Source: an uncultured Acidobacteriota bacterium
GTDB taxonomy: Bacteria; Acidobacteriota; Thermoanaerobaculia; UBA5066; Gp7-AA6
DNA: 64,000 nt
Direction of reading: 5' to 3'
NCBI GenBank assembly: GCA_963733955.1
Contig: CAVTEW010000002.1
Coordinates: 5,863-69,862 of the forward strand
Part shown: positions 7,100 through 64,000 of the stretch, piece after piece
How positions within the stretch are numbered: the first letter of the stretch is position 1
How the letters are laid out: every line of letters starts with the position of its first letter
Made by a program: the position numbers and the translations under genes
The notes under the pieces: model-generated
Seen by the model: only the letters and a program-made list of their open reading frames with translations
Told to the model about the DNA's origin: nothing
Database searches by the model: none

Positions 7100-9679
7100 T
7101 TAGGCCGGGAGCCGGGCTCCGTCGCGTCGCCGGCGGACGGCCGCGGACGCCAACTTCCAAAGCTCGAACCAGAGAACGCTCGCCGCGCCGGCGCCCAGAC
7201 ACAGAAGCGCATCGCCGGCGCGGAGGCGCTCGAACTGGAACAGGTCGCGCAGGGCCGGGACCTCCAGGACCAGGACCAGGGCCGCCGCGGCCCCGCCGAC
7301 GACCCACCATAGCGTCGGGTTTCGCCTCCCCAGCGAAGACAGGATGGTCCGCGAGCGGGATCGCTCCACCAGGATGAGCCCGAGGTTGGCGACGAGGAGC
7401 GTGGAGAAGGCCAGGGCACGCGCGGCGCGCTCGCCGTCGCCGCGCGACAGCGCGAGACCGTACACGACACCGACGGCGGCGAGGATGACCGCTCCCTGCA
7501 GAAGCGCGAGGGCCACCGTCCAGAAGGAAAAGAGCCGCTCGCCGGGGGGCCGCGGGCGGCGCCGCATGACGTCGTCGTCCTCGGGCTCCGCCTCGTAGAC
7601 GATCGAGCACGCCGGGTCGATGATGAGCTCGAGAAAGACGATGTGGACGGGCAGGAGCAGCAGCGGCCATCGAAACAAGAACGGCAGGAGCGACATGCCG
7701 GCGATCGGGACATGCACCGCGAGCAGATAGGCCATGGCCTTCTTGAGGTTGTTGAAGATGCGGCGGCCGAGCCGGATGGCGCCGACGATGGACGAAAACG
7801 CGTCGTCGAGGAGGACGAGCGAGGCCGCCTCGCGCGCCACGTCGGTGCCGCGCTCGCCCATGGCGATCCCGATCTGCGCGGCCGCGAGGGCGGGAGCGTC
7901 ATTGACTCCGTCGCCGGTCATGGCGACGATCTCTCCCTGGGCCTGGAACGCCCGGACGATGCGCAGTTTCTGCTCGGGGACGACGCGCGCGAACACTTGC
8001 GCGTCCCGGGAGCGCCGGGCCAGCTCGGCGTCGGCCATCGCCTCCAGCTCCGGCCCGGTGATCAGCGCCCCGTTCGCGTCGAGGCCGATTTCGCCGGCGA
8101 TGGCCAGCGCCGTGGCCGGCGAGTCGCCGGTGATCATCACGACGCGAATACCGGCGCGGCGGCACTCGGCGATCGCCTCGGGCACGCCTGCCCGCACGGG
8201 ATCGACCAGCCCCACCAGTCCGACCAGCTTGAATTCGAAGTCGTGCTGCTCGCGGGGAAGCGACGGGGGAGCGAACAGCGCGCGCGCGACGCCCAGGACG
8301 CGCAGTCCTCGGGCTGCCATCGCCTCGACCCGGGCGGAAACCTCGCGCGCCCGCTCCGGCCCGAGGTGGCACAGGTCCACGATCGCTTCCGGCGCCCCCT
8401 TGGCCGCGACGACGAACGCGCTCCCTTCGGGCGAGCGCCACACGTGCGACACGGCCAGAAGCGTCGGCGAGAGCGGGTATTCGCGGACGATGGTCCAGTC
8501 GCGGTGGAGGTGGTCGCGCGCGAACACCGCGTCCCGCGCCATGCGCAGGATGGCCCGCTCCATCGGGTCGGCGGGATCGCGCTGGCTGGCCAGGATCGCG
8601 TACTCGAGGACTTCGTGGACGGGCTCGTCCAAGGGAACCGCTCCTTGCGCGGGGATCTCCTGCTCGTGGTTCCCCTCGGACAGGACGCGCAGGGTCATTC
8701 GGTTCTCGGTCAGAGTGCCGGTCTTGTCGACGCAGAGAACCGTCGCCGATCCCAGGCTCTCGATGGCGGCGACGCGGCGGGTCAGGACGCGGCTCTTGGA
8801 AATCCTCCACGCGCCCAACGCGAGGAAGACCGTCAGGACGATCGGAAATTCCTCCGGAAGGATCGCCATCGCCAGCGTGAGGCCGGCCAGGAGACCGTGC
8901 AGCCAGTCGTGGCGGGTGACCGCGTAGAGGACGAAGATCGCGAGGCACAGGGTGATGCCGATCGCCGCGAGGACACGGACGACTCGGCGCGTCTCGCCTT
9001 CCAGGCGGGTCGGCTGCTGCGCGATCGCGTGGAGCGTCTTGCCGATCCGGCCCACCTCGGTGCGCGGACCCGTGGCCGTGGCGCGTGCGATCCCCTGGCC
9101 GCGGACGACGAGCGTGCTCGCGTAGAGATGAGGCTCGTCGTCCCCGCCCGGCCGCGCGGCGGAAACCGCTCCCGACGCGGGGACCTTCCGCACGGGTACG
9201 GACTCCCCGGTCAGCAGCGATTCGTCCACCAGAAGGCTCATGCCTCCGATGAGCAGGGCGTCGGCCGGAACACGGTCGCCTTCCGAGAGGAGGATCAGGT
9301 CTTCGCGGACGACCTCGCGGCCCGGAATGCGCACAGGGGCGCCGTCCCGGATCACCAGGGCCCGCGGGCTGGCGAGATCGCGCAGCGCCTCGAGGGCGCG
9401 TTCGGTTTTGCGGCCCTGGGAGAGCGAGATCGCGATGACCACGCCGATCGAGCCGAGCAGGACGGACGCCTCGCGCGGGTCGCCCAGAAAGAAGTAGAGC
9501 GTCGAGGCCGCGAGCAGCAGGAGAATCATCGGCTCCCGCAGGATCTCCAGGGCGAGGCGGCCGATCCCCCGGCGGCGCGGCGCGGGAAGCTCGTTCCATC
9601 CCTCTTGCGCCAGGCGCCGGGCGGCTTCGACCTGCGTCAAACCGGTGAAGGCCGAGAGGTCGATCGCGGCGCCGCTCAT
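7100..9679 (-). CDS. Cation-translocating P-type ATPase (type II, SERCA/CtpF-like)
   Basis: CVDKTGTLTENRM phosphorylation motif, MTGDGVNDAPAL hinge, and an N-terminal Cation_ATPase_N-like LTQVEAARRLAQEGWNELP. Confidence 0.92.
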   Translation of the reverse strand: MSGAAIDLSAFTGLTQVEAARRLAQEGWNELPAPRRRGIGRLALEILREPMILLLLAASTLYFFLGDPREASVLLGSIGVVIAISLSQGRKTERALEALRDLASPRALVIRDGAPVRIPGREVVREDLILLSEGDRVPADALLIGGMSLLVDESLLTGESVPVRKVPASGAVSAARPGGDDEPHLYASTLVVRGQGIARATATGPRTEVGRIGKTLHAIAQQPTRLEGETRRVVRVLAAIGITLCLAIFVLYAVTRHDWLHGLLAGLTLAMAILPEEFPIVLTVFLALGAWRISKSRVLTRRVAAIESLGSATVLCVDKTGTLTENRMTLRVLSEGNHEQEIPAQGAVPLDEPVHEVLEYAILASQRDPADPMERAILRMARDAVFARDHLHRDWTIVREYPLSPTLLAVSHVWRSPEGSAFVVAAKGAPEAIVDLCHLGPERAREVSARVEAMAARGLRVLGVARALFAPPSLPREQHDFEFKLVGLVGLVDPVRAGVPEAIAECRRAGIRVVMITGDSPATALAIAGEIGLDANGALITGPELEAMADAELARRSRDAQVFARVVPEQKLRIVRAFQAQGEIVAMTGDGVNDAPALAAAQIGIAMGERGTDVAREAASLVLLDDAFSSIVGAIRLGRRIFNNLKKAMAYLLAVHVPIAGMSLLPFLFRWPLLLLPVHIVFLELIIDPACSIVYEAEPEDDDVMRRRPRPPGERLFSFWTVALALLQGAVILAAVGVVYGLALSRGDGERAARALAFSTLLVANLGLILVERSRSRTILSSLGRRNPTLWWVVGGAAAALVLVLEVPALRDLFQFERLRAGDALLCLGAGAASVLWFELWKLASAAVRRRRDGARLPA

Positions 9680-9815
9680 CCCGCGGCCGGGACGCGCGTG
9701 GCCCGCCTCCGGAAGGCCGCGGTGCGGTCGATGGGCGCGCGGAGCGCAAGCGTCTTTCTCATGGCTCGTCTCGGGCGCCGCCCGCGACCGCGCACGCGCG
9801 CGGCGCGGCGGCCGG

Positions 9816-10295
9816 CTACGCGGACTTCTTGTTGGGGCCCTTGCCGGGCTCGCAGATCGCCAGAAGCGCTTCCACGACGACGCGATGGATCTCGTCGGCG
9901 CCCCGCGCAGTCACGCGGCCCTCGGCCGCTCCCGCCGCGACGTCGTTGACCGACACGACCCCGACCAGGCGCCCGCCGCCGTCCACGACGGGAAGCCGGC
10001 GGACCCGGCGGCGTGCCATGGTCAGGAGCGCCTCCTCGATCTCGTCCGACGGCTTGCAGACGAAGGGATGCGGGCTCATGACTTCGCGCACCCGGATGTC
10101 CCCGGGAAACCGGTTCTTTCGGGCCAGCGCCATACAGATGTCGCGATCGGTGATCATGCCCGCCGGCCGGCCTTCGGCGTCGAGCACCGGCAACGTGCCG
10201 CAATCGTGATCCCAGAGCGTCTGGGCTGCGGCGACCAGCGTCGCGTCGGGCGTGCAGGAACGGGCGGGAGACGTCATCACATCCTGGACTTTCAT
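9816..10295 (-). CDS. CBS-pair domain protein
   Basis: MKVQDVMTSP..GMITDRDI..RRLPVVD..GVVSVNDV shows two CBS motifs and no other domain. Confidence 0.9.
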   Translation of the reverse strand: MKVQDVMTSPARSCTPDATLVAAAQTLWDHDCGTLPVLDAEGRPAGMITDRDICMALARKNRFPGDIRVREVMSPHPFVCKPSDEIEEALLTMARRRVRRLPVVDGGGRLVGVVSVNDVAAGAAEGRVTARGADEIHRVVVEALLAICEPGKGPNKKSA

Positions 10296-10342
10296 GTGTC
10301 ACCTCGACGCCTCCATGGTCCTCCCGCGCCGGCAACGGCGCC

Positions 10343-10358
10343 TGATGAGAACTCATCA
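10343..10358. promoter_or_regulatory. Palindromic box TGATGAGAACTCATCA (extended CCTGATGAG-AA-CTCATCAGG)
   Basis: Perfect inverted repeat 48-63 nt upstream of the CBS start at 10295. Member of the recurrent 16-bp motif family. Confidence 0.6.
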
Positions 10359-10359
10359 G

Positions 10360-10416: not shown

Positions 10417-13197
10417 TCAATACGCGATCCGGCGCGACGGCGGAAGAATCGGCCGCCGTCCCACGCGGATGCGGGCATCGACCACGCGAGCGCCGCTCGT
10501 CAGCACCTTGACCGGGTTCAGGTCCATCTCCCGAACCTCCGGGCAGTGCTCGACCAGGGCGGAGACGCGCAGGAGCAGATCCTTCAGAGCCGCTTCGTCC
10601 GCCGGCGCGGCGCCCCGGTAACCGCGCAGGAGCGCCGTTCCCTTGACCTCCTCGAGCATGGCCGTGACGTCGGCGTCGGTCAGGGGGTGCAGCCGGAAAG
10701 CCACGTCGGCGACGAGCTCGACCAAGATTCCGCCGCTGCCGTACAGGACCAGCGGGCCGAAGGTCGAGTCCTGCGTGACGCCGACGATCACCTCGACGCC
10801 CCCGGGCACCATGGCCTGGACCAGGAAATCGGTCAGACCGGGCCCCAGGCGCTCGCTCAGATCGCGGCAGGCGGCCAGGACCGCGGCGTCGTCGGCGAGG
10901 CCGAGACGCACGCCCCCGACCTCGGTCTTGTGGAGAATGGCCGGGCCCACCGCCTTGATGGCCACGGGAAATCCGATCTTCCGGGCCGCCGCCAGCGCGG
11001 CGGTCTCGTCGCGGGCGACCGCCATCTCGGCGACCGGAATTCGAAACGACGTCAGGAGTCCCTGGACGTCGGCCGGCCCCAGCCAGCCGCCGCCCGTTGC
11101 GAGAGCGCGATCGACGATGGCGCGCCCCCCGGCGACGTCGAGGTCGTCGTAGGGAGGGATCTCGCCCGGCGCCTCGGAGCGCCACTCGCCGTAGGCCGCG
11201 GCGCGGGCGAGCGCGAGCGCGGCGGACTCGGGAAAGGGATAGCAGGGGATGGTGGAGAGCGCCGAAGGCGTTCCCTTCGCGCTCATGAACGTGCCCAGGA
11301 CCGGCTTGCGCGCGCCCTTGGCGCCTTCCACGATGGCCGTGGCCACGGCGTCCGGATTGGTCGCGATGGGCGGGATGAAGATGACCAGGACGCTGTCGAG
11401 CTTTTCCTCCGCCAGGAGGATCTTGAGGGACTTGCGGTAGTGCTCGGGCGGGGCCGAGGCCAGCATGTCGACGGGATTGCCGACGCTCGCCGCGGCGGGC
11501 AGGAAGGCCCGGAGCTTCGCGGCGGTCGCCGGCGAGAGCGGCGGCAGGTTCAGGCCCTGCGCCTCGCAGACGTCGGCCGCCAGGATGCCCGGGCCGCCGG
11601 CGTTGGTCAGGATTCCGACGCGCCGCCCGCGGGGCACCGGCTGGTGCGCCAGGAGCGTCGCGACGTCGAAGAGCTCCTCCAGCGTCTGCGTCCGGATCAC
11701 GCCGGCCTGCCGGAAGAGAGCGTCGACCACCGGATCCGCTTCGGCCAGCGCTCCGGTGTGCGAGGTGGCGGCGCGGGACCCGGCCCGGGAGCGCCCGGAC
11801 TTGACCGCGATGATCGGCTTCTTGCGCGCCACGCGCCGGGCGATCCGGGAGAAGCGCACCGGATTGCCGAAGCTCTCCAGGTACAGGAGGATCACGTCCG
11901 TGCGCGGGTCTTCGGCCCAGTACTGGATCAGGTCGTTGCCCGACACGTCGGCCTTGTTGCCGACCGACACGAACGTCGAGATCCCCAGGTTGAGCTTGGA
12001 CGCGTAGTCGAGCAGCGCCAGCCCGAGGGCGCCGCTCTGCGAGGAGAGCGCCACGCGGCCGGCGGGAGGGTAGACCGGAGCGAAGGTGGCGTCGAGGCAG
12101 ACGTCCGGGTCGGTGTTGACCAGGCCCATGCAGTTGGGCCCGACCATGCGGATCCCGGCGGCGCGGATCTTCTCGACCAGGGCGGCCTCGCGGCGCCGCC
12201 CCTCGTCGCCGGTCTCGGAGAAGCCGGCGGTGATGACGATGATGGCCTTCACGCCCTTGGCCACGCAGTCGTCGACCGCGCCGCTGACGAGCTCGGCCGG
12301 GACGGAGAGGACCGCGAGATCGACCGGCCCGGGGACGTCGGTCAGACGGGCGAAGCTCGGGATGCCCAGGATCTCCTTGGCTTTCGGGTTGATCGGCACG
12401 ACCTTTCCCCGGAACCCGTTGGAGACGAGGTTATAGAAGATCTCGGCGCCGATCTTGCCGCGCTCGCGGCTGGCCCCGATGACCGCGACGACCTCGGGCT
12501 CGAAGAGCAGTTTCATCGAAGCCGTGGCGGCCCGCTCGGACCGCTCGGCGGACTGTTCCTCGTAGTGGGCGGTCGGCGTGAGGTCGAGGACGATCCGCTC
12601 GACGCCTTCCTCGATCCGCCGCCGGGTCGTGTCGAATCCGCAGTTGTGGAAGACGTCGATCATGCGCCGGTTGTGGCCCAGGACCTCGGCTTCGAACGTG
12701 GTGATTCCGTGCTGGCGGGCGATGTCGGCCAGGCGCTCGAGCAGCCGCGTCCCGACGCCTTGTCCCTGCAGCGCGTCTTCGACCGTGAAGGCGACCTCGG
12801 CGCGCTCGGGCCGTTTCGGATCGCGGAAGTAATGGGCCACGGCGACGATGCGTCCGGCCGCCTCGCCGACTAAGGCGAAGAGACTGTCGTAGTCGACCCG
12901 GCAGAAGCCCTCGGCCCGCTCGGCGTCGATCCTGGGGACCGAGAAGAAGCGAAAGTACAGGCTGTCCGGCGAGAGCCGCTTGTAGAAGGCCAGGAGGGCC
13001 GGCGCGTCCGACGGCCGGATCGGCCGCAGCCGCAGGGTCGATCCCGAGCGCAGGACGACGTCGCGCTCCTCGTGGGCCGGATACGCGGCCTCGGCAACGA
13101 CGGGGGTCGGGAAATCGGCGATCTTGATCGACAGGGCGGTACCTCCGACGCCACCTTCTCGCGGCCCGACGCGGGGTCCCTGATACGGATGCATCAT
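10417..13197 (-). CDS. Pat-like fusion: N-terminal GNAT acetyltransferase + ADP-forming acyl-CoA synthetase (CoA-binding, ligase, ATP-grasp)
   Basis: GNAT region (LRLRPIRPSD..QGQGVGTRLLE). CoA-binding/succinyl-CoA-synthetase-like region (VAVIGASRERGKIG, GPNCMG). ATP-grasp-type C-terminus. Confidence 0.88.
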   Translation of the reverse strand: MMHPYQGPRVGPREGGVGGTALSIKIADFPTPVVAEAAYPAHEERDVVLRSGSTLRLRPIRPSDAPALLAFYKRLSPDSLYFRFFSVPRIDAERAEGFCRVDYDSLFALVGEAAGRIVAVAHYFRDPKRPERAEVAFTVEDALQGQGVGTRLLERLADIARQHGITTFEAEVLGHNRRMIDVFHNCGFDTTRRRIEEGVERIVLDLTPTAHYEEQSAERSERAATASMKLLFEPEVVAVIGASRERGKIGAEIFYNLVSNGFRGKVVPINPKAKEILGIPSFARLTDVPGPVDLAVLSVPAELVSGAVDDCVAKGVKAIIVITAGFSETGDEGRRREAALVEKIRAAGIRMVGPNCMGLVNTDPDVCLDATFAPVYPPAGRVALSSQSGALGLALLDYASKLNLGISTFVSVGNKADVSGNDLIQYWAEDPRTDVILLYLESFGNPVRFSRIARRVARKKPIIAVKSGRSRAGSRAATSHTGALAEADPVVDALFRQAGVIRTQTLEELFDVATLLAHQPVPRGRRVGILTNAGGPGILAADVCEAQGLNLPPLSPATAAKLRAFLPAAASVGNPVDMLASAPPEHYRKSLKILLAEEKLDSVLVIFIPPIATNPDAVATAIVEGAKGARKPVLGTFMSAKGTPSALSTIPCYPFPESAALALARAAAYGEWRSEAPGEIPPYDDLDVAGGRAIVDRALATGGGWLGPADVQGLLTSFRIPVAEMAVARDETAALAAARKIGFPVAIKAVGPAILHKTEVGGVRLGLADDAAVLAACRDLSERLGPGLTDFLVQAMVPGGVEVIVGVTQDSTFGPLVLYGSGGILVELVADVAFRLHPLTDADVTAMLEEVKGTALLRGYRGAAPADEAALKDLLLRVSALVEHCPEVREMDLNPVKVLTSGARVVDARIRVGRRPILPPSRRIAY

Positions 13198-13270: not shown

Positions 13271-13768
13271 CTACAGCGCGCGGATCAGCTCGGTCACGTC
13301 CGGGAGAGCCGGCGCGCTCGCGGGATAGCGCCGCTCGCCGATCTTCTGGAGCGTATGGACGACGTCGGAATGGGACACGCCGGTCGCTTCCCCGCCGGCG
13401 TCTGCCTGGCGGATCGCGTCGTTCAACGAGAGGATCCCCGAGAGGTTCCCCTCCGCGTCGACCACCGGAAGCCGCCGGACTCGCTTTTCCCGCATCATGG
13501 CCAGGGCGCGCCGGACGTGCGCCTCCGGCCGGCATGCCGCGACCGAGCGGCTCATCGCCTCGCCCACCGTCATCTCCGAGGGGCGGCGGTCGTTCTCGGT
13601 CAGGGCGATGCAGATGTCGCGGTCGGTGATGACGCCGACGACCCTGCCTTCGGAAACCACCGGCAGGACGCCCGAGTCGATCGACCGCAGGGTCCGGCCG
13701 GCCTCGGCCAGAGTGCGCTCGGGAGCGCAGCTGGTAACGCCGCGGGTCATCAGGCTTTCGATTCTCAT
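13271..13768 (-). CDS. CBS-pair domain protein
   Basis: MRIESLMTRGV..GVITDRDI..RRLPVVDAEGNLSGILSLND. Confidence 0.9.
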   Translation of the reverse strand: MRIESLMTRGVTSCAPERTLAEAGRTLRSIDSGVLPVVSEGRVVGVITDRDICIALTENDRRPSEMTVGEAMSRSVAACRPEAHVRRALAMMREKRVRRLPVVDAEGNLSGILSLNDAIRQADAGGEATGVSHSDVVHTLQKIGERRYPASAPALPDVTELIRAL

Positions 13769-13771
13769 GGC

Positions 13772-14227
13772 TCACCCCCCGGTGTTTTCCCCGTCTGTCC
13801 GCCCGCAGATCGTCCGGTAGGCCTCGACGATCTCGCGGTCGGGCAGGGCTTCCATCGCGCCGGCCCGTCCCAGGACGTCATCGATGGACAGGATCCCGAC
13901 GAGCGCTCCGGAATCGTCCAGGACCGGCAGGCGGCGGACGCGTTCGCGCTGCATGGTCGTCAGCGCGGCGCCCAGGTTGTCGTTCTCGCGGCAGACGTGG
14001 ATCGGCCGGCTCATGACGTCCGCGACGGGCAGCTCGTTGGGGAGGCACTGGGCCGCTCCCAGGCCCATGCAGATGTCCCGATCGGTGATCATGCCGACGG
14101 TCTGTCCGCGCGAGACCACCGGGAGCGTGCCGCAGGCGCTCTCGGCCATGAGGACGGCCGCCGCGCCGAGCGTGGTCTGGGGCGTGCAGCAGACGGGATG
14201 ACGCGTCATCACCTGGCGCACTCGCAT
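13772..14227 (-). CDS. CBS-pair domain protein
   Basis: MRVRQVMTRHP..GMITDRDI..RRLPVLDDSGALVGILSIDD. Only 3 nt separate it from the next CBS gene. Confidence 0.9.
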   Translation of the reverse strand: MRVRQVMTRHPVCCTPQTTLGAAAVLMAESACGTLPVVSRGQTVGMITDRDICMGLGAAQCLPNELPVADVMSRPIHVCRENDNLGAALTTMQRERVRRLPVLDDSGALVGILSIDDVLGRAGAMEALPDREIVEAYRTICGRTDGENTGG

Positions 14228-14379: not shown

Positions 14380-15360
14380 ATGGTCAACGCAAACCAACCC
14401 CGGTTGAGAGTTCTCCTTCCGCTCAAGCCGAAGGACGACGTGGCGGACCTGGCGCGGCTGCTTCCCGCGCTGCTGCCCCCGGAGGCGACGCAACTGCGGC
14501 GCCTTTACGTCCATCGCCCGGTGGAAGCCGACGTCTTCATTCCGGAGACCTACGCCCGCCTGCCGGAAATCGCCCAGATCGAATTCGACGCGGAGAACGC
14601 CACCCGCGTGGAGACCGAGCGCGAGATGGCGCCGCTGGGGTCGGAGGGGTACGGCGTGACCTCGGAGGTCGTGCGCGGCAATCCCACCGAGGAGGTCCTG
14701 CGGGAGGCGAGCTTCTGGCGCGCCGACCTGGTCGCCGCGCGCACCCGCAGCGCGTCGGCCCAGGACCGCAAGATCGGCGGAATGGCCGCCGCGCTCCTCC
14801 ACCACGCGACCTGCGCCGTGCTGCTTCACCGGGAGATCCCGGAGGGGTACCGCATTCGGCGGGTCCTGATCCCGACGGACTTCTCCCGGGCGGCCCGTCA
14901 GAGCGCGGACTGGGGCCTGGCCCTGGCCGATTTGACCGGCGCCCAGCCGCACCTGCTACACGTGATCGCGCGCTGGAACAACCGCCACGGCATTCACCAG
15001 GACGAGCTGCTGCGCCTGGCCACCGACGAGCTCGAGCGCTGGCGCGCCCGCGGACATGCGCTCCTGCGCCGCCCCGTCGAGCAGGGCCAGGTCATCGAAG
15101 CGGCCACGCCGGCGGAGGGGATCCTTTCCTACGCGCAGCAGAAGCAGGTCGATCTGATCGTGGTCGCGGCCACCGGAATGTCGGCCGTCCGCGCGGCCCT
15201 GCTGGGATCCAACACGCGAAAGGTCGTGCGCGCCGCCGGCTGCCCGGTCGTCGTGATCCCCACGGCCAACCGGGTCAGCGCGCGGACGCTTCTGGATCGC
15301 GCGCGTGCCTTCGCGGCGAGGCCGGTCGAAGCCGGGACAGCCGTCGAGAGCGCGCGATGA
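14380..15360 (+). CDS. Tandem-domain universal stress protein
   Basis: Two USP domains (..LRVLLPL.., RRVLIPTDFSRAARQS..VVAATGMSAVRAALLGSNTRKVVRAAGCPVVVIP). ATG 14380 is preferred over GTG 14329, which would sit on the operator. Confidence 0.85.
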   Translation: MVNANQPRLRVLLPLKPKDDVADLARLLPALLPPEATQLRRLYVHRPVEADVFIPETYARLPEIAQIEFDAENATRVETEREMAPLGSEGYGVTSEVVRGNPTEEVLREASFWRADLVAARTRSASAQDRKIGGMAAALLHHATCAVLLHREIPEGYRIRRVLIPTDFSRAARQSADWGLALADLTGAQPHLLHVIARWNNRHGIHQDELLRLATDELERWRARGHALLRRPVEQGQVIEAATPAEGILSYAQQKQVDLIVVAATGMSAVRAALLGSNTRKVVRAAGCPVVVIPTANRVSARTLLDRARAFAARPVEAGTAVESAR

Positions 15361-15391
15361 GTGAACGAACCAACCGAGGAGGAGATTGACC

Positions 15392-15901
15392 ATGGCGACT
15401 TCGGAGACAGTGACCGGCAACTCCCCAAAGAAGCCCGCGGGCCCGCCCTCCGGGACTCCCAGGACCGTCCCCGCCGCCGGGAAAGTCCGGGTGCGGCTGG
15501 TGCGCGACCTGATGACCGAAACCGTCTTCACCCTGAGGGCGAAAGACGATCTGGCCACGCTCTACGACCTCATGGACTCCCGCCACGTCCGACACGTTCC
15601 GATCGTGGACGCGGAGGGCGAGATCGTCGGCCTGGTCACCCACCGCGACCTGTCGCGCTCGGCGCTCGGGGCGCTGGACGACCTGCCTCTGTCGGCCGAG
15701 CGCGACGAGCTGCGGCGCCGGAAGGTGCGCGACATCATGGCCACCGAGCCGGACACGATCGAGCCGGACGCGAGGCTCCAGGAAGCGGCGCAGATGCTCC
15801 TGGAGAACAAGATCGGCTGCGTCCCGGTCGTGGAGGGCCTGCACCTGGTGGGCATCCTGACCGAAGCCGACTTCGTCCGCGACTTCCTGGAGCGGGGCTG
15901 A
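15392..15901 (+). CDS. CBS-pair domain protein
   Basis: VRDLMTETV..HVPIVDAEGEIVGLVTHRDL..GCVPVVEGLHLVGILTEADF. SD GAGGAGGAG lies 7 nt before ATG 15392 (the track starts at TTG 15386). Confidence 0.88.
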   Translation: MATSETVTGNSPKKPAGPPSGTPRTVPAAGKVRVRLVRDLMTETVFTLRAKDDLATLYDLMDSRHVRHVPIVDAEGEIVGLVTHRDLSRSALGALDDLPLSAERDELRRRKVRDIMATEPDTIEPDARLQEAAQMLLENKIGCVPVVEGLHLVGILTEADFVRDFLERG

Positions 15902-15903
15902 CC

Positions 15904-16428: not shown

Positions 16429-16430
16429 CC

Positions 16431-16901: not shown

Positions 16902-16902
16902 C

Positions 16903-25143: not shown

Positions 25144-25159
25144 TGATGTAAACGCATTA
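25144..25159. promoter_or_regulatory. Palindromic box TGATGTAAACGCATTA (one core mismatch)
   Basis: Lies in the divergent feoB / hypothetical-gene intergenic region. Confidence 0.4.
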
Positions 25160-27476: not shown

Positions 27477-27492
27477 TGATGCGTCCACATCA
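27477..27492. promoter_or_regulatory. Palindromic box TGATGCGTCCACATCA
   Basis: Exact TGAT-N8-ATCA core, 70-85 nt upstream of the nitroreductase start. The ABC ATPase gene is divergent from it. Confidence 0.55.
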
Positions 27493-48494: not shown

Positions 48495-48510
48495 TGATGT
48501 ATCTGCATCA
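48495..48510. promoter_or_regulatory. Palindromic box TGATGTATCTGCATCA
   Basis: Exact core only 28-43 nt upstream of the PFOR ATG. Confidence 0.55.
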
Positions 48511-52418: not shown

Positions 52419-52423
52419 CCCCG

Positions 52424-53997: not shown

Positions 53998-53998
53998 G

Positions 53999-55992: not shown

Positions 55993-56685
55993 TTACTCGG
56001 AGCGCGCCGCGGCGGCGCGGGCCTCTTCTTCGATGGCGCGGAGACGGTCCAGGATCTCTTCCCGCGGCGCGGTTCTCTCCAGGAGGCTCTGGAGCGCGTC
56101 GTCGTGCAAGGCGAAGGCGAGGCGGGCGAACATCTGGAGGTGGACCCGCACCGACGGCGACAGCAGCACGAACAGGACGCGCACGGGCCGGCCGTCCAGG
56201 GCATGAAAATCGATCGGCCGGCGGAGGAAACAAACCAGGACCACAGGCTCATCGGTGTGAACCACGACGGGATCGCGCGGGTGCGGAATCGCGATGCCGT
56301 TGCCGATGCCGGTCGACGCGAGCGCCTCCCGCGCGGCCAGGAGCTGGTGGAGGAGCTGCCGGTCGACGCGCGGCGGGATCCCCGGCAACCGGGAAACCGC
56401 CTGCAGAACGTCCTCGCGCCGCTCGCCCGGGATGTCGTAGAAGATGCCGCCCCGGCCGATCGCCGCGGAAAGGCTCGAGACCTCTTCGGACGCGCCGTTG
56501 CCGGCGAGCAGCTCGGGCGAGACCCGATGCTCGTGCAGCGCGGCCCACTCCTGCAGCTCGACGCGGTGGAACATGTACTGGTCATGAATCCGGTGAGCCG
56601 GCAGGGAGCCGCTGCGGATCCAGCGGTAGATGGTCTGCTCCGAAACGTTGAGCAGGCGAGCGACGTCTCGAACTCTCAGTTCCAT
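55993..56685 (-). CDS. HTH (excisionase/MerR-like) + PTS EIIA(Ntr/Fru)-type domain regulator
   Basis: MELRVRDVARLLNVSEQTIYRWIRSGSLPAHRI, and an EIIA-2 core with the TGIGNGIAIPH histidine loop. Confidence 0.8.
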   Translation of the reverse strand: MELRVRDVARLLNVSEQTIYRWIRSGSLPAHRIHDQYMFHRVELQEWAALHEHRVSPELLAGNGASEEVSSLSAAIGRGGIFYDIPGERREDVLQAVSRLPGIPPRVDRQLLHQLLAAREALASTGIGNGIAIPHPRDPVVVHTDEPVVLVCFLRRPIDFHALDGRPVRVLFVLLSPSVRVHLQMFARLAFALHDDALQSLLERTAPREEILDRLRAIEEEARAAAARSE

Positions 56686-56734
56686 CGGCGCAAGCTCCTC
56701 GCGAGTCTCGAAAGTGGGACGGCCATGACCCTGG

Positions 56735-57475
56735 CTAGCGCTTGGCCGGCTTGGTCCCGGCGGCTGTCCGGGGCCCATCGTCCAAGGCGACCTTGCGCTC
56801 CGTCGCGGCAACGGCCCGAAAGATCGACTGGGCGTCGGACGCGTCGAGGACGGCCCGGACGGCCTCCGCGCGCGCGAACATGTGCGCGAGCTTGTTGAGC
56901 CACGGAAGGTAGAGCTCCTCGAACTTGAGGCCGAGCGCGAAGAAGAGATGGGTCGGCCCGCCGTCCAGAGCGTCGAAGTCCACTCCCGGCCGCGAGCGGC
57001 CGAGGAGCATGAACGGACGGGAGACCTGCTCGGGATTTCGGCGCAGGGTGTGGAGAAAGGCGACGCCGTTGCCCATGGCGCTGGGCATCACATTCTCGCG
57101 CTCGATCAACGCCCCGACGAACCAGGTCTTGTCCCGCACGAGGCCTAATCGGGCGGCCAGACCCGCGAGCTCCTCGATGACCGTGTTCTTCGTCGCGGCT
57201 TCCAGATCGGGCACGATGTGGTCCGGCTGAAAGCAGGTGGCCAGCGCGAGCATGCGCCGTGGGGAGCCTTCCAGGCGCGGCGCGTCCACGTACCGCGGCA
57301 TCACGCCGAGCATCTGGTCGTCGAGCCACGTGTCGATCATGGCCTTCCGAAAGCGCCACTGGTTCCCCACCTTGACTCCGGGGAGGGCGCCGTCCGAGAC
57401 GAGCTTGGCCACGGTCCGGTCGTTCACGCTCAGGTACTCCGCCAGCTGCTTGATCGTCATCAAACGATCTTCCAT
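56735..57475 (-). CDS. HTH (excisionase/MerR-like) + PTS EIIA-type domain regulator (paralogue)
   Basis: LMTIKQLAEYLSVNDRTVAKLVSDGALPGVKVGNQWRF, and EIIA-like SAMGNGVAFLH. SD GGAGAA lies 9 nt before the ATG. Confidence 0.8.
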   Translation of the reverse strand: MEDRLMTIKQLAEYLSVNDRTVAKLVSDGALPGVKVGNQWRFRKAMIDTWLDDQMLGVMPRYVDAPRLEGSPRRMLALATCFQPDHIVPDLEAATKNTVIEELAGLAARLGLVRDKTWFVGALIERENVMPSAMGNGVAFLHTLRRNPEQVSRPFMLLGRSRPGVDFDALDGGPTHLFFALGLKFEELYLPWLNKLAHMFARAEAVRAVLDASDAQSIFRAVAATERKVALDDGPRTAAGTKPAKR

Positions 57476-61321: not shown

Positions 61322-61337
61322 TGATGTAATCACATCA
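61322..61337. promoter_or_regulatory. Palindromic box TGATGTAATCACATCA
   Basis: Perfect 6+6 inverted repeat in the divergent xfp / membrane-protein region, 48-63 nt from the xfp ATG. Confidence 0.6.
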
Positions 61338-61373: not shown

Positions 61374-61910
61374 ATGGTGTCGAGAGAGCGGTGGACCCCG
61401 GTCTCCATGAGCCTCATGGCTCGCGCGCTGGCCGGCTTCGGGCTGGCCGCGGCCGCGGCGGCGTCCTCCCCCCGGGCGCTGCCCATGATCCTGGGCGCCT
61501 ACGCCTTTGCCGACGCGCTCGTCCTGTTGCAGCTCTCTTCCGGGCTCCCGAGCCGCGCGCTGTTCGTGTCCGGCTTCGCGGGCCTGGCTCTGGCCGCGTT
61601 GTTGCTCCTTGCCCCTCCGGCCTCCGCCTTCGGCCTGAACGCGCTCGTGGGCGTGTGGGCCATGGCCATGGGGCTGCTCGGGCTCCTGGGCGCCGGCGCC
61701 TTCGGGGCCGTCCCCGTCGAGCGGTCCCTCTTCGCGTCGGGGAGCGTGGGGGGCATCGTGGTCGGAAGCTGGCTCGGAGTTTCTCCCCATGCGGCTGCGG
61801 CGACGCTCTCCGTTCTGATCGCCGCGCTCGGGCTCGCCGTCGGCGGTTCGTCGCTCGCCGTGGCCGTCCGGCGTCGATCTGATGCAGTCGCATCATGCGG
61901 TGGGGTCTGA
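61374..61910 (+). CDS. Hypothetical integral membrane protein (Gly/Ala-rich TM repeats, HdeD/DUF308-like)
   Basis: Only the last 178 codons of track ORF 58926..61910 are taken. They contain five or six hydrophobic segments. Confidence 0.55.
   Translation: MVSRERWTPVSMSLMARALAGFGLAAAAAASSPRALPMILGAYAFADALVLLQLSSGLPSRALFVSGFAGLALAALLLLAPPASAFGLNALVGVWAMAMGLLGLLGAGAFGAVPVERSLFASGSVGGIVVGSWLGVSPHAAAATLSVLIAALGLAVGGSSLAVAVRRRSDAVASCGGV
61881..61896. promoter_or_regulatory. Palindromic box TGATGCAGTCGCATCA
   Basis: Perfect 6+6 inverted repeat 80-95 nt upstream of the USP start at 61976 (inside the 3' end of the preceding ORF). Confidence 0.6.
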
Positions 61911-61975: not shown

Positions 61976-62431
61976 ATGAAGATTCTCGTAGCCACAGACG
62001 GATCCAGAGGCAGCACGGCGGCCCTGAGCTTCGCTGCGAAACTCGCCGGCGGCGAGGGCGCGGAGCTGATCGTGCTGACCGTCGATCCGAGCAACGGGTC
62101 GCGGCCCGGACTCCGCGAGGTCGGCAAGGACGGTCCCGCGGCGGCCGTGCGGCCGGAAGCGCGCAAGACCCTGGACGCGGCGGCGCGCGAGATCAAGCGT
62201 CACCACGCCAAGGCCCAGTTTCAGACGATCTCGGCGAGGCGGCAGGACGAGATTCCCGACGTGATCTCCCGGGAAGCCGATCGGATCAAGGCCGATCTCG
62301 TGATCGTCGGAAGCGAAGGCCGGGACACCCTGAACGAATGGGTCGTCGGCGGCGTCGCCCTGCGCCTGATCTACGTGGCGCGCCGGCCGGTCACGGTCGT
62401 GCGTCCGCCCCGGCGCCGGCAGGCGAGCTAG
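61976..62431 (+). CDS. Universal stress protein
   Basis: MKILVATDGSRGS..DLVIVGSEGRDTLNEWVVGGVALRLIYVARRPVTVV. SD AAGGAG. Confidence 0.88.
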   Translation: MKILVATDGSRGSTAALSFAAKLAGGEGAELIVLTVDPSNGSRPGLREVGKDGPAAAVRPEARKTLDAAAREIKRHHAKAQFQTISARRQDEIPDVISREADRIKADLVIVGSEGRDTLNEWVVGGVALRLIYVARRPVTVVRPPRRRQAS

Positions 62432-62461: not shown

Positions 62462-63136
62462 TTGAAGCCGGAGCAGACCTTGTTCCAGAATTCCGAAGCC
62501 CTGGACCGCATCTCCCGCAGCGGCGAGGCCGTGTTCGCGATCGACTCCGCGGATCGCATCGTTCTCTGGAACAAGCGGTGCGAGGAGCTGCTCGGCCGTC
62601 CGGCCAAGAGCGTCCTCGGCAAGCGCTGCTACGAGGTGATGGGCGGGCGCGACCCCAACGGCAACGTCTACTGTTATCGCAACTGCCCGGTCGCCTTCCA
62701 GTCGCGCGAGCGGCCCAAGGAGCCGGTCAAGCGCTTCGAGCTGTCCGTGGAGGGGCCCCGGGGAGGGCGCCGCTGGATCGAGGTCTCCATGTTCGCGATT
62801 CCGTCCTACCACCCCGCGCTGGCCACGGTGGTGCACGTGCTGCGCGAAGGGAAGGACAAAGAGACGCCGCTCGAGCACGCCCTGAGCCGCGAGGCCGAGG
62901 CCCGCGAGCCGCTCTGGCCAATGATGACCAACGACGGCAAGCCGGTCGACCTGACCAACCGCGAGAAGGAGATCCTGCGGTCGATGGCCGGGGGGCTCTC
63001 CACCGCCGCGATTTCCAGGCGGCTCTTCATCTCGCCGGTGACGGTCCGAAACCACATCCAGAACATCCTGCACAAGTTGAACGTCCACACCAAGCTCGCC
63101 GCCGTGGTCTTCGCCTACCAGCACGAGTTGATTTAG
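62462..63136 (+). CDS. PAS (4-Cys) + LuxR/GerE-type HTH one-component regulator
   Basis: PAS-like RIVLWNKRCEELLG.. with Cys spacing C-X15-C-X14-C-X3-C. C-terminal LTNREKEILRSMAGGLSTAAISRRLFISPVTVRNHIQNILHKL. The start is TTG 62462 or, better aligned with the paralogue, TTG 62480. Confidence 0.85.
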   Translation: MKPEQTLFQNSEALDRISRSGEAVFAIDSADRIVLWNKRCEELLGRPAKSVLGKRCYEVMGGRDPNGNVYCYRNCPVAFQSRERPKEPVKRFELSVEGPRGGRRWIEVSMFAIPSYHPALATVVHVLREGKDKETPLEHALSREAEAREPLWPMMTNDGKPVDLTNREKEILRSMAGGLSTAAISRRLFISPVTVRNHIQNILHKLNVHTKLAAVVFAYQHELI

Positions 63137-63276: not shown

Positions 63277-63292
63277 TGATGTGGATTCATCA
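63277..63292. promoter_or_regulatory. Palindromic box TGATGTGGATTCATCA
   Basis: Exact core. First of two boxes upstream of the second PAS-LuxR gene. Confidence 0.55.
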
Positions 63293-63297
63293 GGAAT

Positions 63298-63313
63298 TGA
63301 TGCATTCGCATCA
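63298..63313. promoter_or_regulatory. Palindromic box TGATGCATTCGCATCA
   Basis: Perfect 6+6 inverted repeat. Its centre is 21 bp from the previous box, and it lies 47-62 nt upstream of ATG 63360. Confidence 0.6.
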
Positions 63314-63359
63314 TCACGGCGTTTCCGGGGCTGGGCAACGATAGGCCTCGGAGGACGCC

Positions 63360-64000
63360 ATGAGAGTTTTCGACGAGACGCTGGAACGGATCTCCCGCAG
63401 CGGCGAGGCGGTCTTCGCGATCGACGGAGCGGACCGGATCATCCTGTGGAACAAGGCCTGCGAAACGCTGGTCGGAAAGTCCGCCAAGAGCGTTCTCGGC
63501 AAGCCCTGTTACGACGCCATGTGCGGAAGGGATCCCAACGGCAACCTGTACTGCCATCGCAGCTGTCCGGTGGCCTACCAGGCCCGCGAAAAGACGGAAG
63601 ACCCCGTACACCGGTTCGAGCTCACGGTGAAGGCCGGAGACGGGAAGCTCCGCCAGTTCTCCACCTCCCTCTTCGCGATCCCGTCCTATCACCCGGCCCT
63701 GACGACGGTGGTGCACGTGCTGCGCCCGGTGACGGACGCCTCTCCGGCCGCCGCGCCGGCGATCGTTTCCGAGCCGCTCACGCCCCTGACCAACGGGGAC
63801 GGAGAAACGATCGCCCTGACGCCGCGCGAAAAGGAAGTCCTGCGCTGCCTGGCCCAGGGCCTGGCCACTCCGGCCATCTCGAAGAAGCTCTTCATCTCGG
63901 CGGTGACCGTGCGCAATCACATCCAGAACGTCCTGCAGAAGCTCGGCGTGCACTCCAAGCTCGAAGCGGTCGTGCTCGCGCACAAGCACCAGCTGATCTA
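63360..64000 (+). CDS. PAS (4-Cys) + LuxR/GerE-type HTH regulator, paralogue (stop codon cut by window end)
   Basis: My own translation is MRVFDETLERISRSGEAVFAIDGADRIILWNKACETLVG..CYDAMCGRDPNGNLYCHRSCPV..LTPREKEVLRCLAQGLATPAISKKLFISAVTVRNHIQNVLQKL..HKHQLI, followed by 'ta' at the window edge. SD GGAGGA. This ORF is not in the supplied ORF track. Confidence 0.85.
   Translation, partial: MRVFDETLERISRSGEAVFAIDGADRIILWNKACETLVGKSAKSVLGKPCYDAMCGRDPNGNLYCHRSCPVAYQAREKTEDPVHRFELTVKAGDGKLRQFSTSLFAIPSYHPALTTVVHVLRPVTDASPAAAPAIVSEPLTPLTNGDGETIALTPREKEVLRCLAQGLATPAISKKLFISAVTVRNHIQNVLQKLGVHSKLEAVVLAHKHQLI

Follow-up and report, generated by a model that had tools for sequence, protein, structure and literature searches.

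The window, by which we mean the whole 64,000-nucleotide stretch of DNA analysed here, comes from a MAG of the Thermoanaerobaculia (Acidobacteriota). Its genes were called by codon usage and annotated with Pfam and NCBIfam; the assignments below are from Pfam unless another model is named. We found in it an island of about 57 kb, in which stress, ribosome-hibernation and fermentation genes accompany a repeated 16-base promoter element. The GC content is even across the window, no mobile elements were seen among its annotated genes, and a gene for a TonB-dependent receptor adjoins the island. The lineage is indeed diderm, as the first-pass annotation had it, being acidobacterial and having this receptor gene as a neighbour. 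The seven USP genes (one of them tandem) and seven stand-alone CBS-pair genes listed there were recovered in exactly these numbers, and the nitroreductase, PfkB, PRTase, P-type ATPase, HPF and archease with RtcB were all found by Pfam or NCBIfam.

The 16-bp box is a palindrome, TGATGC-N4-GCATCA, or in its fuller form TGATGC-RWWY-GCATCA. Its core, TGATG-N6-CATCA, has 8 exact matches in the window against 0.01 expected, all of them at promoters, and 32 matches with up to two mismatches against 12.7 +/- 3.5 expected. All 14 PWM matches scoring at least 20 lie within intergenic regions or at their borders, while a search of the window for the DosR box gave nothing above chance. It had been proposed that this box, and not a DosR box, ties the genes together, which agrees with these counts. 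As a statement about the entire island it holds only in part: operons with a strong box contain about 27 of the 52 genes of 7100-64000, but boxes are missing or weak for archease-RtcB, the membrane complex, KaiC-HK, DtxR, the ABC1 kinase, ZnuA and YkuD.

Beginning with the stress and maintenance genes and their neighbours, a P2-type (Ca/PMR1/SERCA-like) P-type ATPase (7100..9679, minus strand; Pfam E1-E2_ATPase, Cation_ATPase_N and Cation_ATPase_C; top NCBIfam match TIGR01522, under its cut-off) shares an operon with a CBS-pair gene (9816..10295, minus; start re-read from the sequence), 5' of which lies an exact box (10343..10358, PWM 27.2). Two boxes (14263-14278 and 14299-14314, PWM 23.9 and 24.5) occupy the divergent promoter between two further CBS-pair genes (13271-13750 and 13772-14227, minus) and a plus-strand operon (14440..16847) encoding the tandem USP (14440-15360), a CBS-pair protein (15491-15901), a DUF442/DSP-PTPase-like, sulfur-transferase-like protein (15904-16428, NCBIfam TIGR01244) and a USP (16431-16847). 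Divergent promoters also separate the ferrous-iron transporter FeoB (23085..25109, minus) from the DUF5335 (25210-25584) and PRTase (25611-26267) genes on the plus strand (box 25144..25159, PWM 24.0), and an ABC ATPase gene (minus) from that of a short classical nitroreductase of 183 aa (27640..28191, plus; exact box 27477..27492, PWM 26.1). Archease (31306-31731) and RtcB RNA ligase (31785-33212), both on the plus strand (Pfam E=7.6e-36 and E=3.3e-165), are inside the island without a strong box of their own. The RtcB stop codon is overlapped by the box (33210..33225, PWM 23.4) of the next operon, consisting of a PfkB-family hexose kinase (33252/33312-34250, plus; TIGR03168 with 270.8 bits against a cut-off of 216.4) and a short HPF (34306-34710, plus; Pfam Ribosomal_S30AE, E=8e-11). 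The CBS-pair gene at 28854..29309 (minus) has a single weak box at 29517 (PWM 14.5), and the one at 34742..35209 (minus) has weak boxes at 35279 and 35315. Two USP genes (37012-37566, start re-read from the sequence, and 37587-38006, plus) follow a box at 36950..36965 (PWM 21.7); a CBS-pair gene (38315-38758) and two USP genes (38902-39345 and 39509-39955) come next on the plus strand, with a box (38808..38823, PWM 24.9) 5' of the USP gene at 38902. The USP paralogues of the island are 43-56% identical to each other, and the USP and CBS copies are, judged by their sequences, local paralogue expansions.

Genes of energy metabolism are present too. A GNAT domain fused to an ADP-forming acyl-CoA synthetase (GNAT-ACS, 926 aa; 10417..13197, minus), matched by NCBIfam AcCoA-syn-alpha and related models, has a box overlapping its annotated start (13181..13196, PWM 20.3). 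PFOR (44868-48407) and a dihydroorotate-dehydrogenase-like protein (43871-44863), both minus, lie behind a box at 48495..48510 (PWM 28.6); NCBIfam NF005741 is matched above its cut-off in this pair of genes. Phosphoketolase (58866-61274) and acetate kinase (57628-58740), also minus, are divergent from a membrane protein gene at 61356 (plus), with an exact box between them (61322..61337, PWM 25.7); both the gene order and a counterpart of this box (at 8761) were seen in one related locus, L001. Two tandem proteins combining HTH_17 (excisionase-type) and PTS-EIIA(Ntr)-like parts (55993..57460, minus; Pfam, NCBIfam) head the operon of the membrane complex (48596..55987, minus), which has no strong box. 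The six Hyf/Hyc-like subunit genes (HyfB/E/F-like subunits among them) bear out the earlier description as hyc-like, but in the catalytic, NuoD/HycE-like large subunit the CxxC motifs that would bind Ni-Fe are missing (Ehr-type), so it is not a hydrogenase.

Across 205 site-orientations, a TAnnnT-type A/T signal occurs at +39..+45 from box position 1. In the aligned promoters of seven PFOR orthologues the invariant columns cluster in the box, and TAnnnT stands 23 nt 3' of it in most of them. By its spacing, TAnnnT is the predicted -10 element, at a fixed distance from the box, which would put the centre of the box close to -42.5, where class II activators bind.

Comparison with 79 related PAS-LuxR loci (1.23 Mb in total) reveals a conserved regulon. 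They contain 252 boxes with a PWM score of at least 18, none inside a gene; as the loci were chosen for encoding a PAS-LuxR protein, the co-occurrence of box and PAS-LuxR is partly built in. The box is absent from 12 loci, about 202 kb in total, that surround PAS-LuxR paralogues of, for the most part, greater divergence; ten of these loci span about 13-21 kb and two about 3 kb, and the majority belong to MAGs that also supplied box-rich loci. The commonest box-linked gene in the relatives is a USP of the type encoded at 61976 (26 cases). The families that are repeatedly linked to a box there are USP (41), PAS-LuxR (21), DUF5335 (13), ECH (12), GNAT-ACS (11, each time as the first gene after the box), PFOR (8), FeoB (7), HSP20 (5), multihaem cytochromes (5) and CBS (4, with 12 more as operon followers). 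RtcB/archease and nitroreductase occur in none of the 79 loci, and genes of the membrane complex in just a few. The conserved targets are predicted to be USP, CBS, DUF5335, PfkB, PRTase, the ATPase, GNAT-ACS, PFOR, FeoB, HPF, HSP20 and the regulators; RtcB/archease, nitroreductase and the membrane complex are, on this comparison, not conserved members.

Receiver-less PAS-LuxR proteins had been named as candidate regulators, and we did find two PAS+GerE genes without a receiver domain; these are the sole plausible local regulators. The first (218 aa; 62480..63136, plus) is probably co-transcribed with the USP gene directly 5' of it (61976..62431, plus), whose exact box (61880..61895, PWM 26.3) has a counterpart in L001/L003. 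The second (213 aa; 63360..63998, plus) is 62% identical to the first and preceded by tandem exact boxes 21 bp apart (63277-63292 and 63298-63313, PWM 26.8 and 27.7), with a weak third box at 63255. The three boxes suggest that it is autoregulated, and the double box is kept in L003 and L005. Invariant in the alignment of the first protein are C34, C50, C65, C69, H111 and H119; down to about 30% identity, C50, C65 and C69 remain invariant and H119 nearly so. The fold matches VqmA, EL222 and 3clo, and so resembles the one-component PAS-LuxR regulators VqmA and EL222, the AlphaFold model being only moderate (pLDDT 69). A phmmer search of the structure library with the PAS domain returned no related solved PAS domain at E<=0.01, and by sequence it thus could not be connected to any of them.

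Our preferred reading, which as a whole we regard as reasonably probable, is that the window holds the greater part of a regulon island in the chromosome of a Thermoanaerobaculia bacterium, a box-tied low-oxygen survival regulon driven by PAS-LuxR proteins and assembled independently of DosR. The box is probably read by the two cysteine-rich PAS-LuxR proteins. We infer that these paralogous one-component regulators (PAS plus LuxR/GerE HTH) would bind it as dimers, with the palindrome centre about 42.5 bp 5' of the transcription start; since the box would take the place of the -35 element, we propose that they act as class II activators, their own genes being activated too. One part of the regulon would serve maintenance or quiescence (USP, CBS-pair proteins, HPF, P2-type ATPase, PfkB, PRTase, DUF5335 and, in relatives, HSP20), and the other low-oxygen energy supply (PFOR, phosphoketolase-acetate kinase, ADP-forming acyl-CoA synthetase and FeoB, joined in relatives by multihaem cytochromes and an operon led by enoyl-CoA hydratase). 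Loss of O2 or a change in redox state is the likely signal, and a metal or Fe-S centre on the three invariant PAS cysteines and histidine might be its sensor; PAS domains that hold an Fe-S centre on three Cys ligands are known, as in NreB (PMC13478379). Hypoxia as the trigger is suggested by these residues together with O2-sensitive targets: PFOR, a radical-SAM enzyme and the 2-hydroxyacyl-CoA dehydratase (HGD-D) genes in the enoyl-CoA hydratase-led box operon of L001, the one locus inspected, are O2-labile and fit induction under anoxia.

One may ask whether another factor, for example one of the CRP/FNR family encoded elsewhere, reads a real box, the PAS-LuxR proteins being members of the regulon and not its masters. 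The CRP-like 5-N6-5 geometry and class II position are typical of CRP/FNR, the locus sample was selected by PAS-LuxR presence, and a box lies directly 5' of only 21 among 98 PAS-LuxR genes. However, no CRP/FNR-family gene is found in the window or among the commonest box-linked families, the core is TGA-N10-TCA here and TGA-N6-TCA in CRP/FNR, and the conserved double boxes 5' of a PAS-LuxR gene indicate autoregulation. Moreover, characterised PAS-LuxR regulators of Streptomyces bind 16-bp palindromes in the -35 region (PMC9774167), and we thus consider another reader quite unlikely. A signal other than oxygen limitation (energy or carbon starvation, sulfide/persulfide, NO, or an anaerobe's encounter with O2) is still improbable, though to be taken seriously, and it would make the label "hypoxia/dormancy" wrong even with the right regulator. 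USP, CBS and HPF are modules of general use in responses to starvation and energy charge, and the genes linked to a box include those for DUF442 sulfur-transferase-like and rhodanese proteins. The class Thermoanaerobaculia has an anaerobe as its type species. The PAS cysteines could instead have a structural role as Zn ligands, or respond to sulfide, NO or the thiol redox state; the PAS domain of NreB, whose Fe-S centre is bound by three Cys ligands, senses sulfide (PMC13478379). On the other hand, PFOR, FeoB, multihaem cytochromes, 2-hydroxyacyl-CoA dehydratase operons and fermentative enzymes that yield ATP, all of them box-linked, are what FNR/Anr-type regulators turn on when O2 disappears, and O2-labile enzymes would be a poor answer to O2 stress.

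[quoted passage not shown] Closest matches, as had been supposed, the Mtb proteins are not: among PDB matches, Rv2623 ranks 9-10 of 23 for an island USP and Rv2626c 15 of 80 for a CBS protein at 13271..14227, the latter match being near full length (residues 10-125 of 133, E=1e-10). Acg proteins have about 330 aa, and the nitroreductase, with its 183 aa and classical nitroreductases of 172-210 aa as top PDB matches, does not look Acg-type. The island USPs are mostly single-domain, in contrast to the tandem-domain USPs of Mtb. [quoted passage not shown] Against it stand, besides these comparisons, the even GC content, the lack of mobile elements among the annotated genes, and the absence from the window of a DosR box, of a GAF-domain kinase and of any receiver-domain regulator that bears a LuxR-type HTH. 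We therefore find it very improbable, and the epithet "ancestral" is unlikely to suit an island whose USP and CBS copies are local expansions and whose regulator has another architecture. Clustered DosR-like low-oxygen loci are already known, both in Streptomyces (OsdR) and, under a different regulator and in a diderm, in Burkholderia cenocepacia (lxa; PMC3721108). Within the independent-assembly reading, to which we give fairly good credence, the island would have been put together from the same widespread protein families as the DosR, OsdR and Anr-lxa low-oxygen survival regulons, and would be their functional analogue.

The genes of the window, whose G+C content is 70%, were called by codon-usage scoring and annotated with Pfam and NCBIfam, and the inventory that the first-pass annotation had given for the island (the stress, hibernation and fermentation genes at window positions 7100-64000) proved to be correct. 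Pfam recognized seven genes for universal stress proteins (USPs), a tandem-domain one at 14440-15360 and others at 16431, 37012, 37587, 38902, 39509 and 61976, as well as seven stand-alone CBS-pair genes at 9816, 13271, 13772, 15491, 28854, 34742 and 38315. Besides these, there are a P2-type P-ATPase (7100-9679), a phosphoribosyltransferase (PRTase, 25611-26267), a nitroreductase of 183 aa (27640-28191), archease (31306) and RtcB (31785), a short HPF (34306-34710), a PfkB kinase passing the TIGR03168 cut-off, a Hyf/Hyc-like membrane complex of six genes (48596-55987) and two PAS+GerE proteins lacking a receiver domain (62480-63136 and 63360-63998). The island also encodes, beyond what the first-pass annotation had stressed, PFOR with a DHO-dehydrogenase-like protein, phosphoketolase with acetate kinase (AckA), FeoB/DtxR, DUF5335, a DUF442 sulfur-transferase-like protein, an ABC1/UbiB kinase, KaiC with a hybrid kinase, and two HTH_17-EIIA(Ntr)-like proteins. 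A tRNA-Sec gene (anticodon TCA) lies directly to the left of the island, at 2404-2501 (-), implying that the organism uses selenoproteins.

Several of the encoded proteins may be noted separately. GNAT-ACS, a 926-aa fusion encoded at 10417-13197 (-), begins with a GNAT acetyltransferase domain and continues with a complete ADP-forming acyl-CoA synthetase, which is the reverse of the domain order found in Pat/YfiQ-type protein acetyltransferases. At 35501-36907, a radical SAM enzyme of the AmmeMemoRadiSam system (TIGR04337, 555 bits) is followed by DUF302, and no match to the AMMECR1 or Memo family was found among the called genes of the window. The protein encoded at 42048-42722 (-) has no Pfam match and contains a repeat of about 35 aa present three times (..RRKAWLEGPTEDEKR.WA..); its neighbors, a membrane protein (42857-43294) and a small Cys-rich protein (43558-43794), are likewise unannotated. 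For the CBS proteins encoded at 38315-38758 and 13772-14227, the best PDB matches include 9zni, 9znf, 9zng, 9l96 and 9e6q, which are named merely “CBS domain-containing protein” and bear numeric chain ids, suggesting that they are subunits of large assemblies. The identity of such assemblies could hint at binding partners of the seven CBS proteins of the window.

A large part of the island appears to be wired together by the box, the 16-bp palindrome TGATGC-N4-GCATCA. It emerged from a dyad search in the form TGATG-N6-CATCA, which was then refined to TGATGC-RWWY-GCATCA; counting k-mers in the intergenic DNA missed it, giving only GC-rich words and a heptad repeat. The exact core occurs 8 times in the window (0.01 expected), and matches with up to two mismatches number 32, against 12.7 ± 3.5 expected. 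When a position weight matrix (PWM) was applied, 14 sites scored at least 20, and all 14 were located in intergenic regions or at their edge. Strong boxes precede the CBS-ATPase, CBS-CBS(-ACS), USP-CBS-DUF442-USP, PfkB-HPF, PFOR-DHOdh and USP-PAS-LuxR 1 operons, a USP-USP pair and one single USP gene. They are also found before FeoB (divergent with DUF5335-PRTase), an ABC ATPase gene (divergent with the nitroreductase) and phosphoketolase-AckA (divergent with a membrane protein gene), and two strong boxes and a weak one lie upstream of PAS-LuxR 2. The box overlaps the annotated start codon of GNAT-ACS, and there is a weak box at 43821 by the gene for the small Cys-rich protein. By our own operon assignment, box-headed operons cover about 27 of the 52 genes between 7100 and 64000. 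The box is absent or weak at archease-RtcB, the membrane complex, the KaiC-kinase pair, DtxR, the ABC1 kinase, ZnuA and YkuD. The idea that the island genes are tied together by the box thus holds for those behind a strong box, but does not extend to archease-RtcB and the membrane complex.

The heptad repeat deserves mention on its own. The phosphoketolase-acetate kinase spacer contains about eight tandem GGCGTGA heptads (58745-58806), followed at 58842-58870 by about four CGCCTAA heptads, which are roughly complementary. Pairing of these blocks could give the operon mRNA a long imperfect hairpin. A comparable run (GGCGTRA) is present at 10366-10395, directly upstream of the box at 10343, and the repeat recurs at about 39446.

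We also searched the window for other operators. A scan with the DosR box (TTSGGGACTWWAGTCCCSAA) returned one match with three mismatches, located within a gene, while 2.2 were expected by chance; the proposal that the operator is a different one from that of DosR is therefore borne out. Canonical FNR boxes (TTGAT-N4-ATCAA) are represented in the window by a single site, the perfect palindrome TTGATCGTCATCAA at 57450-57463, which overlaps the ATG of the first HTH_17-EIIA gene, at the head of the membrane-complex operon. This site is probably a coincidence of coding sequence, or else it may provide a second, FNR-like input to a box-less operon. No cNMP-binding (Crp-type) protein was found among the called genes of the window.

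The position of the box relative to the promoter was assessed in an alignment of 205 box-plus-downstream orientations. An A/T-rich signal of the TAnnnT type was found at +39 to +45 from box position 1, and nowhere else. Similarly, in seven aligned promoters of PFOR orthologues the invariant columns were concentrated in the box, and most of the seven had a TA(A/C/T)(C/G)nT hexamer 23 nt downstream. Such fixed spacing would place the box center at about -42.5/-43.5, overlapping the -35 region, the position typical of a class II activator. The start codon often comes within 40-70 bp after the box center, so the leaders would be short.

Both the box and the gene families behind it recur in related genomes. 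Homologues of PAS-LuxR with more than 70% identity number in the hundreds and come from Thermoanaerobaculia wherever a taxon is named. Our scan of GTDB species representatives yielded 79 loci, all of Thermoanaerobaculia or Acidobacteriota MAGs, a taxonomic restriction which is partly built in, as the search patterns were the conserved peptides of the family itself. In the closest relative (89% identity) synteny is kept, in the order membrane complex, EIIA regulators, AckA, phosphoketolase, USP, PAS-LuxR, PAS-LuxR. In a relative with 77% identity the order is reshuffled and the families are kept (USP, HPF, CBS, DUF442, ACS, DUF5335, PfkB, USP and two PAS-LuxR). The 79 loci (1.23 Mb) contain 252 boxes with a PWM score of at least 18, none of them inside a called gene. 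Twelve loci (about 202 kb; ten of about 13-21 kb and two of about 3 kb) are box-free and almost devoid of stress genes; they lie around PAS-LuxR paralogues that are mostly more divergent, and come mostly from the same MAGs as the box-rich loci, and thus serve as an internal control for box density.

When the first gene after each box in the related loci was counted by family, USP was the most frequent (41 loci), followed by PAS-LuxR itself (21), DUF5335 (13), enoyl-CoA hydratase (12), GNAT-ACS (11), PFOR (8), FeoB (7), HSP20 and multihaem cytochromes (5 each), BON, PNPOx-like, hemerythrin and CBS (4 each, CBS appearing 12 more times as an operon follower), and HPF and Zn-ADH (3 each). RtcB, archease and nitroreductase were found in none of the 79 loci, and membrane-complex genes in only a few. 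In the related loci L001 and L003, boxes (13485 and 14613) precede a rhodanese/DoxX pair and the enoyl-CoA hydratase-led operon; such linkage extends to 12 related loci. This operon comprises enoyl-CoA hydratase, SDR, Zn-ADH, a second enoyl-CoA hydratase and 2-hydroxyacyl-CoA dehydratase (HGD-D), the HGD-D genes having been seen in L001, the single locus inspected. As these box-linked operons would lie directly beyond the window end, the island probably continues to the right of 64000.

Which protein reads the box? The two regulators at the right end of the island, PAS-LuxR 1 (62480-63136 (+), 218 aa) and PAS-LuxR 2 (63360-63998 (+), 213 aa), are 62% identical. A 224-aa version of the former, starting at TTG, gave no match in an exact look-up and was rejected in favor of the 218-aa product. 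Both proteins have an N-terminal PAS domain and a C-terminal LuxR/GerE HTH within the length of about 200-230 aa typical of PAS-LuxR regulators, and Pfam detects no Response_reg domain in either, in agreement with their description as receiver-less candidate regulators. The predicted fold, of moderate quality (pLDDT 69), matches VqmA, the Bacteroides protein 3clo and EL222 over the full length in Foldseek. Among PDB matches, the HTH is closest to LiaR/VraR/NarL, the C-terminal domain of DosR being a weaker match (E=1.5e-5). Streptomyces PAS-LuxR proteins of the PimM family are activators whose operator, a palindrome of 16 bp, lies in the -35 region (PMC9774167). Given that this geometry matches the one predicted for the box, and that a double box is conserved before the second regulator, the two PAS-LuxR proteins are the best candidates for the activator that would bind the box. 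Regulator-operator co-variation was uninformative in the divergent PAS-LuxR paralogues, where the recognition-helix core VTVRNH is invariant and only half-box-like elements occur. Four box-free loci with paralogues that are 54-56% identical (L067, L068, L071 and L072) share an upstream element, TATGATGC-N4/5-GAACCGTTCCAGACC, whose left half-box is perfect and whose right half is different, suggesting that this group has a related but distinct operator.

The PAS domain of these proteins shows no detectable sequence similarity to any solved PAS domain. In the close clade, C34, C50, C65 and C69 (C-x3-C-P motif) and H111/H119 are invariant, and in 26 sequences down to 27% identity C50, C65 and C69 remain invariant and H119 nearly so. 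Because this Cys3(+His) site falls in the cofactor-binding part of the PAS domain, it suggests an Fe-S or metal center, and PAS-LuxR may be viewed as a putative sensor of that kind; the PAS domain of NreB holds a [2Fe-2S] cluster by three cysteines (PMC13478379). A bolder and, in our opinion, rather doubtful possibility is that the Cys3/His PAS-LuxR proteins constitute a new type of one-component sensor, with an Fe-S or metal-thiolate center responding to O2, redox state or sulfide. They would then do the work of FNR on a PAS-LuxR scaffold and directly turn on a programme of quiescence plus fermentation. At 50% identity (E ≤ 1e-10) the wider family falls into 428 clusters, mostly of about 220 aa, and such breadth could mean that the sensor type is widespread.

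As for the signal, the box-linked genes fall into a quiescence and maintenance set (USP, CBS, HPF, HSP20, P2-ATPase, PfkB, PRTase) and an O2-sensitive or anaerobic energy set (PFOR, phosphoketolase/AckA, ADP-forming ACS, FeoB, multihaem cytochromes and the enoyl-CoA hydratase-led operon). FNR/Anr-type regulators switch on such sets when O2 disappears. On the strength of this resemblance, we favor a scenario in which O2 loss or a reductive shift would lead PAS-LuxR to activate the box-linked genes. On the other hand, starvation, sulfide or NO might be the trigger instead, a less favored but quite conceivable reading with which the box linkage of DUF442 and rhodanese genes is in line. Marine Thermoanaerobaculia are reported to encode terminal oxidases (PMC10564751), which makes an oxic/anoxic lifestyle plausible. 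The box-less pair of KaiC homologue and hybrid histidine kinase (HisKA-HATPase-REC), whose genes at 19058-22151 overlap by 20 nt, lies within the island and may supply a timing or energy-state input of its own.

The membrane complex had been described as hyc-like, and its membrane subunits do resemble HyfB/E/F, with NCBIfam scores below the cut-offs. The NuoD/HycE-like subunit (49393-50736, 447 aa) has five cysteines and no CxxC motif, and the stretches corresponding to the Ni-Fe ligand motifs read AGDT and PLCNKS. A real formate hydrogenlyase or Hyc [NiFe] hydrogenase was therefore rejected, as the large subunit lacks the N- and C-terminal CxxC ligands, and for the same reason the complex is better regarded as hydrogenase-related (Ehr-type). 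Given PFOR next door, it may be a ferredoxin-oxidizing ion pump. At 55993-57460 there are two tandem paralogues in which an excisionase-type HTH_17 is fused to a PTS EIIA(Ntr)/PtsN-like domain, an unusual architecture; this pair is upstream of the membrane complex also in L001.

The gene content of the island was originally said to mirror the DosR dormancy regulon of Mycobacterium tuberculosis (Mtb), with an origin that was either convergent or ancestral. The Mtb regulon includes the CBS-pair protein Hrp1, PfkB and CtpF, a P2-type ATPase. A review confirms the Mtb annotations on which the comparison was based: RtcB (Rv2631), a PRTase (Rv0571c), a ribosome-associated factor (Rv0079), nitroreductases (Rv2032 and Rv3131), a formate-hydrogenlyase-like locus (Rv0081-88) and several USPs (PMC5309233). 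The mirroring holds at the level of about nine families. Both sets share USPs, CBS-pair and nitroreductase-fold proteins, PfkB, a P2-type ATPase, PRTase, HPF, RtcB and a hyc-like locus, to which relatives of the island add HSP20 and PNPOx-like proteins. However, with PDB entries of Rv2623, Rv1636, Rv2626c and DosR standing in for the Mtb proteins, solved homologues closer than these were found. Rv2623 ranks 9-10 of 23 PDB hits (E about 5e-9) for the single-domain USP at 38902, outscored by USPs of Thermus, Methanocaldococcus and others; with the tandem USP as query it does not appear at E ≤ 1e-5. Rv2626c takes rank 15 among 80 hits with one CBS protein and is missing at the same threshold with a second. 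The nitroreductase does not look like the Acg type: its best PDB matches are classical enzymes of 172-210 aa, and at 183 aa it is shorter than Acg-type proteins, which have about 330 aa. The island proteins are thus family-level homologues of DosR-regulon proteins rather than orthologues, and their paralogues (43-56% identity among USPs, about 43-48% among CBS proteins) are local expansions.

The regulatory side differs as well. DosR and the PAS-LuxR pair both have a LuxR/GerE-type HTH and a palindromic operator (for PAS-LuxR, DNA binding is a prediction), but DosR is a NarL-family response regulator with a receiver, whereas the island candidates have PAS and GerE only. Mtb employs the haem-GAF kinases DosS/DosT, while the island has no GAF kinase, the sole kinase of the window (20541-22151; HisKA-HATPase-REC) being KaiC-paired and box-less. 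The TGATGC-N4-GCATCA operator is unlike the DosR box; the Mtb regulon is dispersed in nine blocks, in contrast to the single concentration seen here; the fermentation genes PFOR, phosphoketolase/AckA, ACS and FeoB are additions of the island, and narK2/narX, tgs1, fdxA, nrdZ and hspX of Mtb are absent from the window. With regulator architecture, sensor and operator all different, paralogues of local origin and Mtb proteins not the closest, it is much more likely that widespread stress families were recruited convergently than that the two sets share ancestry, which favors the convergent half of the original alternative.

The mix of poorly understood proteins known from hypoxic dormancy in Mtb (USP, CBS-pair, HPF, PfkB, PRTase, P2-type ATPase) is wired together in a distant, diderm, uncultured soil/sediment lineage, with a different operator and a candidate regulator of another build, in which PAS takes the place of a receiver. 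That the mix recurs independently speaks for a functional module by which cells survive when energy or oxygen is limiting, a view helpful for the many DosR-regulon proteins of unknown role. On the rather doubtful reading of PAS-LuxR as a new sensor class, the conserved co-regulated families USP, CBS, HPF, PfkB, PRTase, P2-ATPase, DUF5335 and GNAT-ACS would make up a phylum-independent “dormancy toolkit”, which could help to assign functions to orphan DosR-regulon proteins. Moreover, the operator, the promoter geometry and the candidate Cys3/His PAS sensor are approachable in vitro without culture, and the box-linked genes offer a reading of the oxic/anoxic lifestyle of the abundant Thermoanaerobaculia from metatranscriptomes.

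A clustered DosR-like low-oxygen locus with a non-DosR regulator in a diderm has already been published, namely the lxa locus of Burkholderia cenocepacia, a low-O2-induced chromosomal cluster of about 50 genes whose authors themselves list what it has in common with the DosR regulon (Sass et al. 2013, PMC3721108). Like the island, lxa has USPs (six), a nitroreductase, a PfkB-family kinase, a cation-transporting ATPase and acetate kinase; unlike it, lxa is governed by Anr-like CRP/FNR regulators and a two-component system and contains PHA synthesis genes, alcohol dehydrogenases, a class II RNR and alpha-crystallin, and CBS proteins, of which the island has seven genes, are unmentioned in the main text (PMC3721108). 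A clustered actinobacterial precedent exists around OsdK/OsdR of Streptomyces coelicolor (SCO0167-SCO0219), an autoregulated, dormancy-like regulon with 8 of 11 USP genes, a nitroreductase, Zn-ADH and enoyl-CoA hydratase near the regulator and a 16-bp palindromic operator (PMC5069765). OsdR is, however, a true DosR orthologue, a response regulator with its kinase, and acts in a monoderm at a DosR-like GGGCC/GGCCC box.

Receiver-less two-domain regulators of this build are known, namely the PimM family, VqmA and EL222. The PimM operator (CTVGGGAWWTCCCBAG) has the length and position of the box but a different sequence, and where VqmA binds DPO and EL222 responds to light through FMN, the island family has its invariant Cys3/His signature. 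Known PAS-LuxR proteins control antibiotics, quorum sensing or light responses, whereas the island pair is predicted to control stress and energy metabolism. The proposed logic is the same as that of FNR/Anr and NreB-type Fe-S sensors of oxygen or sulfide, in which a Cys-ligated cluster reports O2 or redox state, a dimer sits at a palindrome near -41.5/-42.5, and anaerobic metabolism and USP genes are activated; still, FNR has a CRP fold and NreB is a histidine kinase, whereas the island regulators are PAS-LuxR proteins with a putative cofactor. Our literature search found no paper linking Thermoanaerobaculia, USP and LuxR. Compared with these systems, what is new is the lineage, Thermoanaerobaculia, the predicted class of Cys3/His PAS-LuxR regulators, the operator with its class II geometry, and the composition of the regulon, with many CBS proteins, HPF, PFOR, phosphoketolase and GNAT-ACS.
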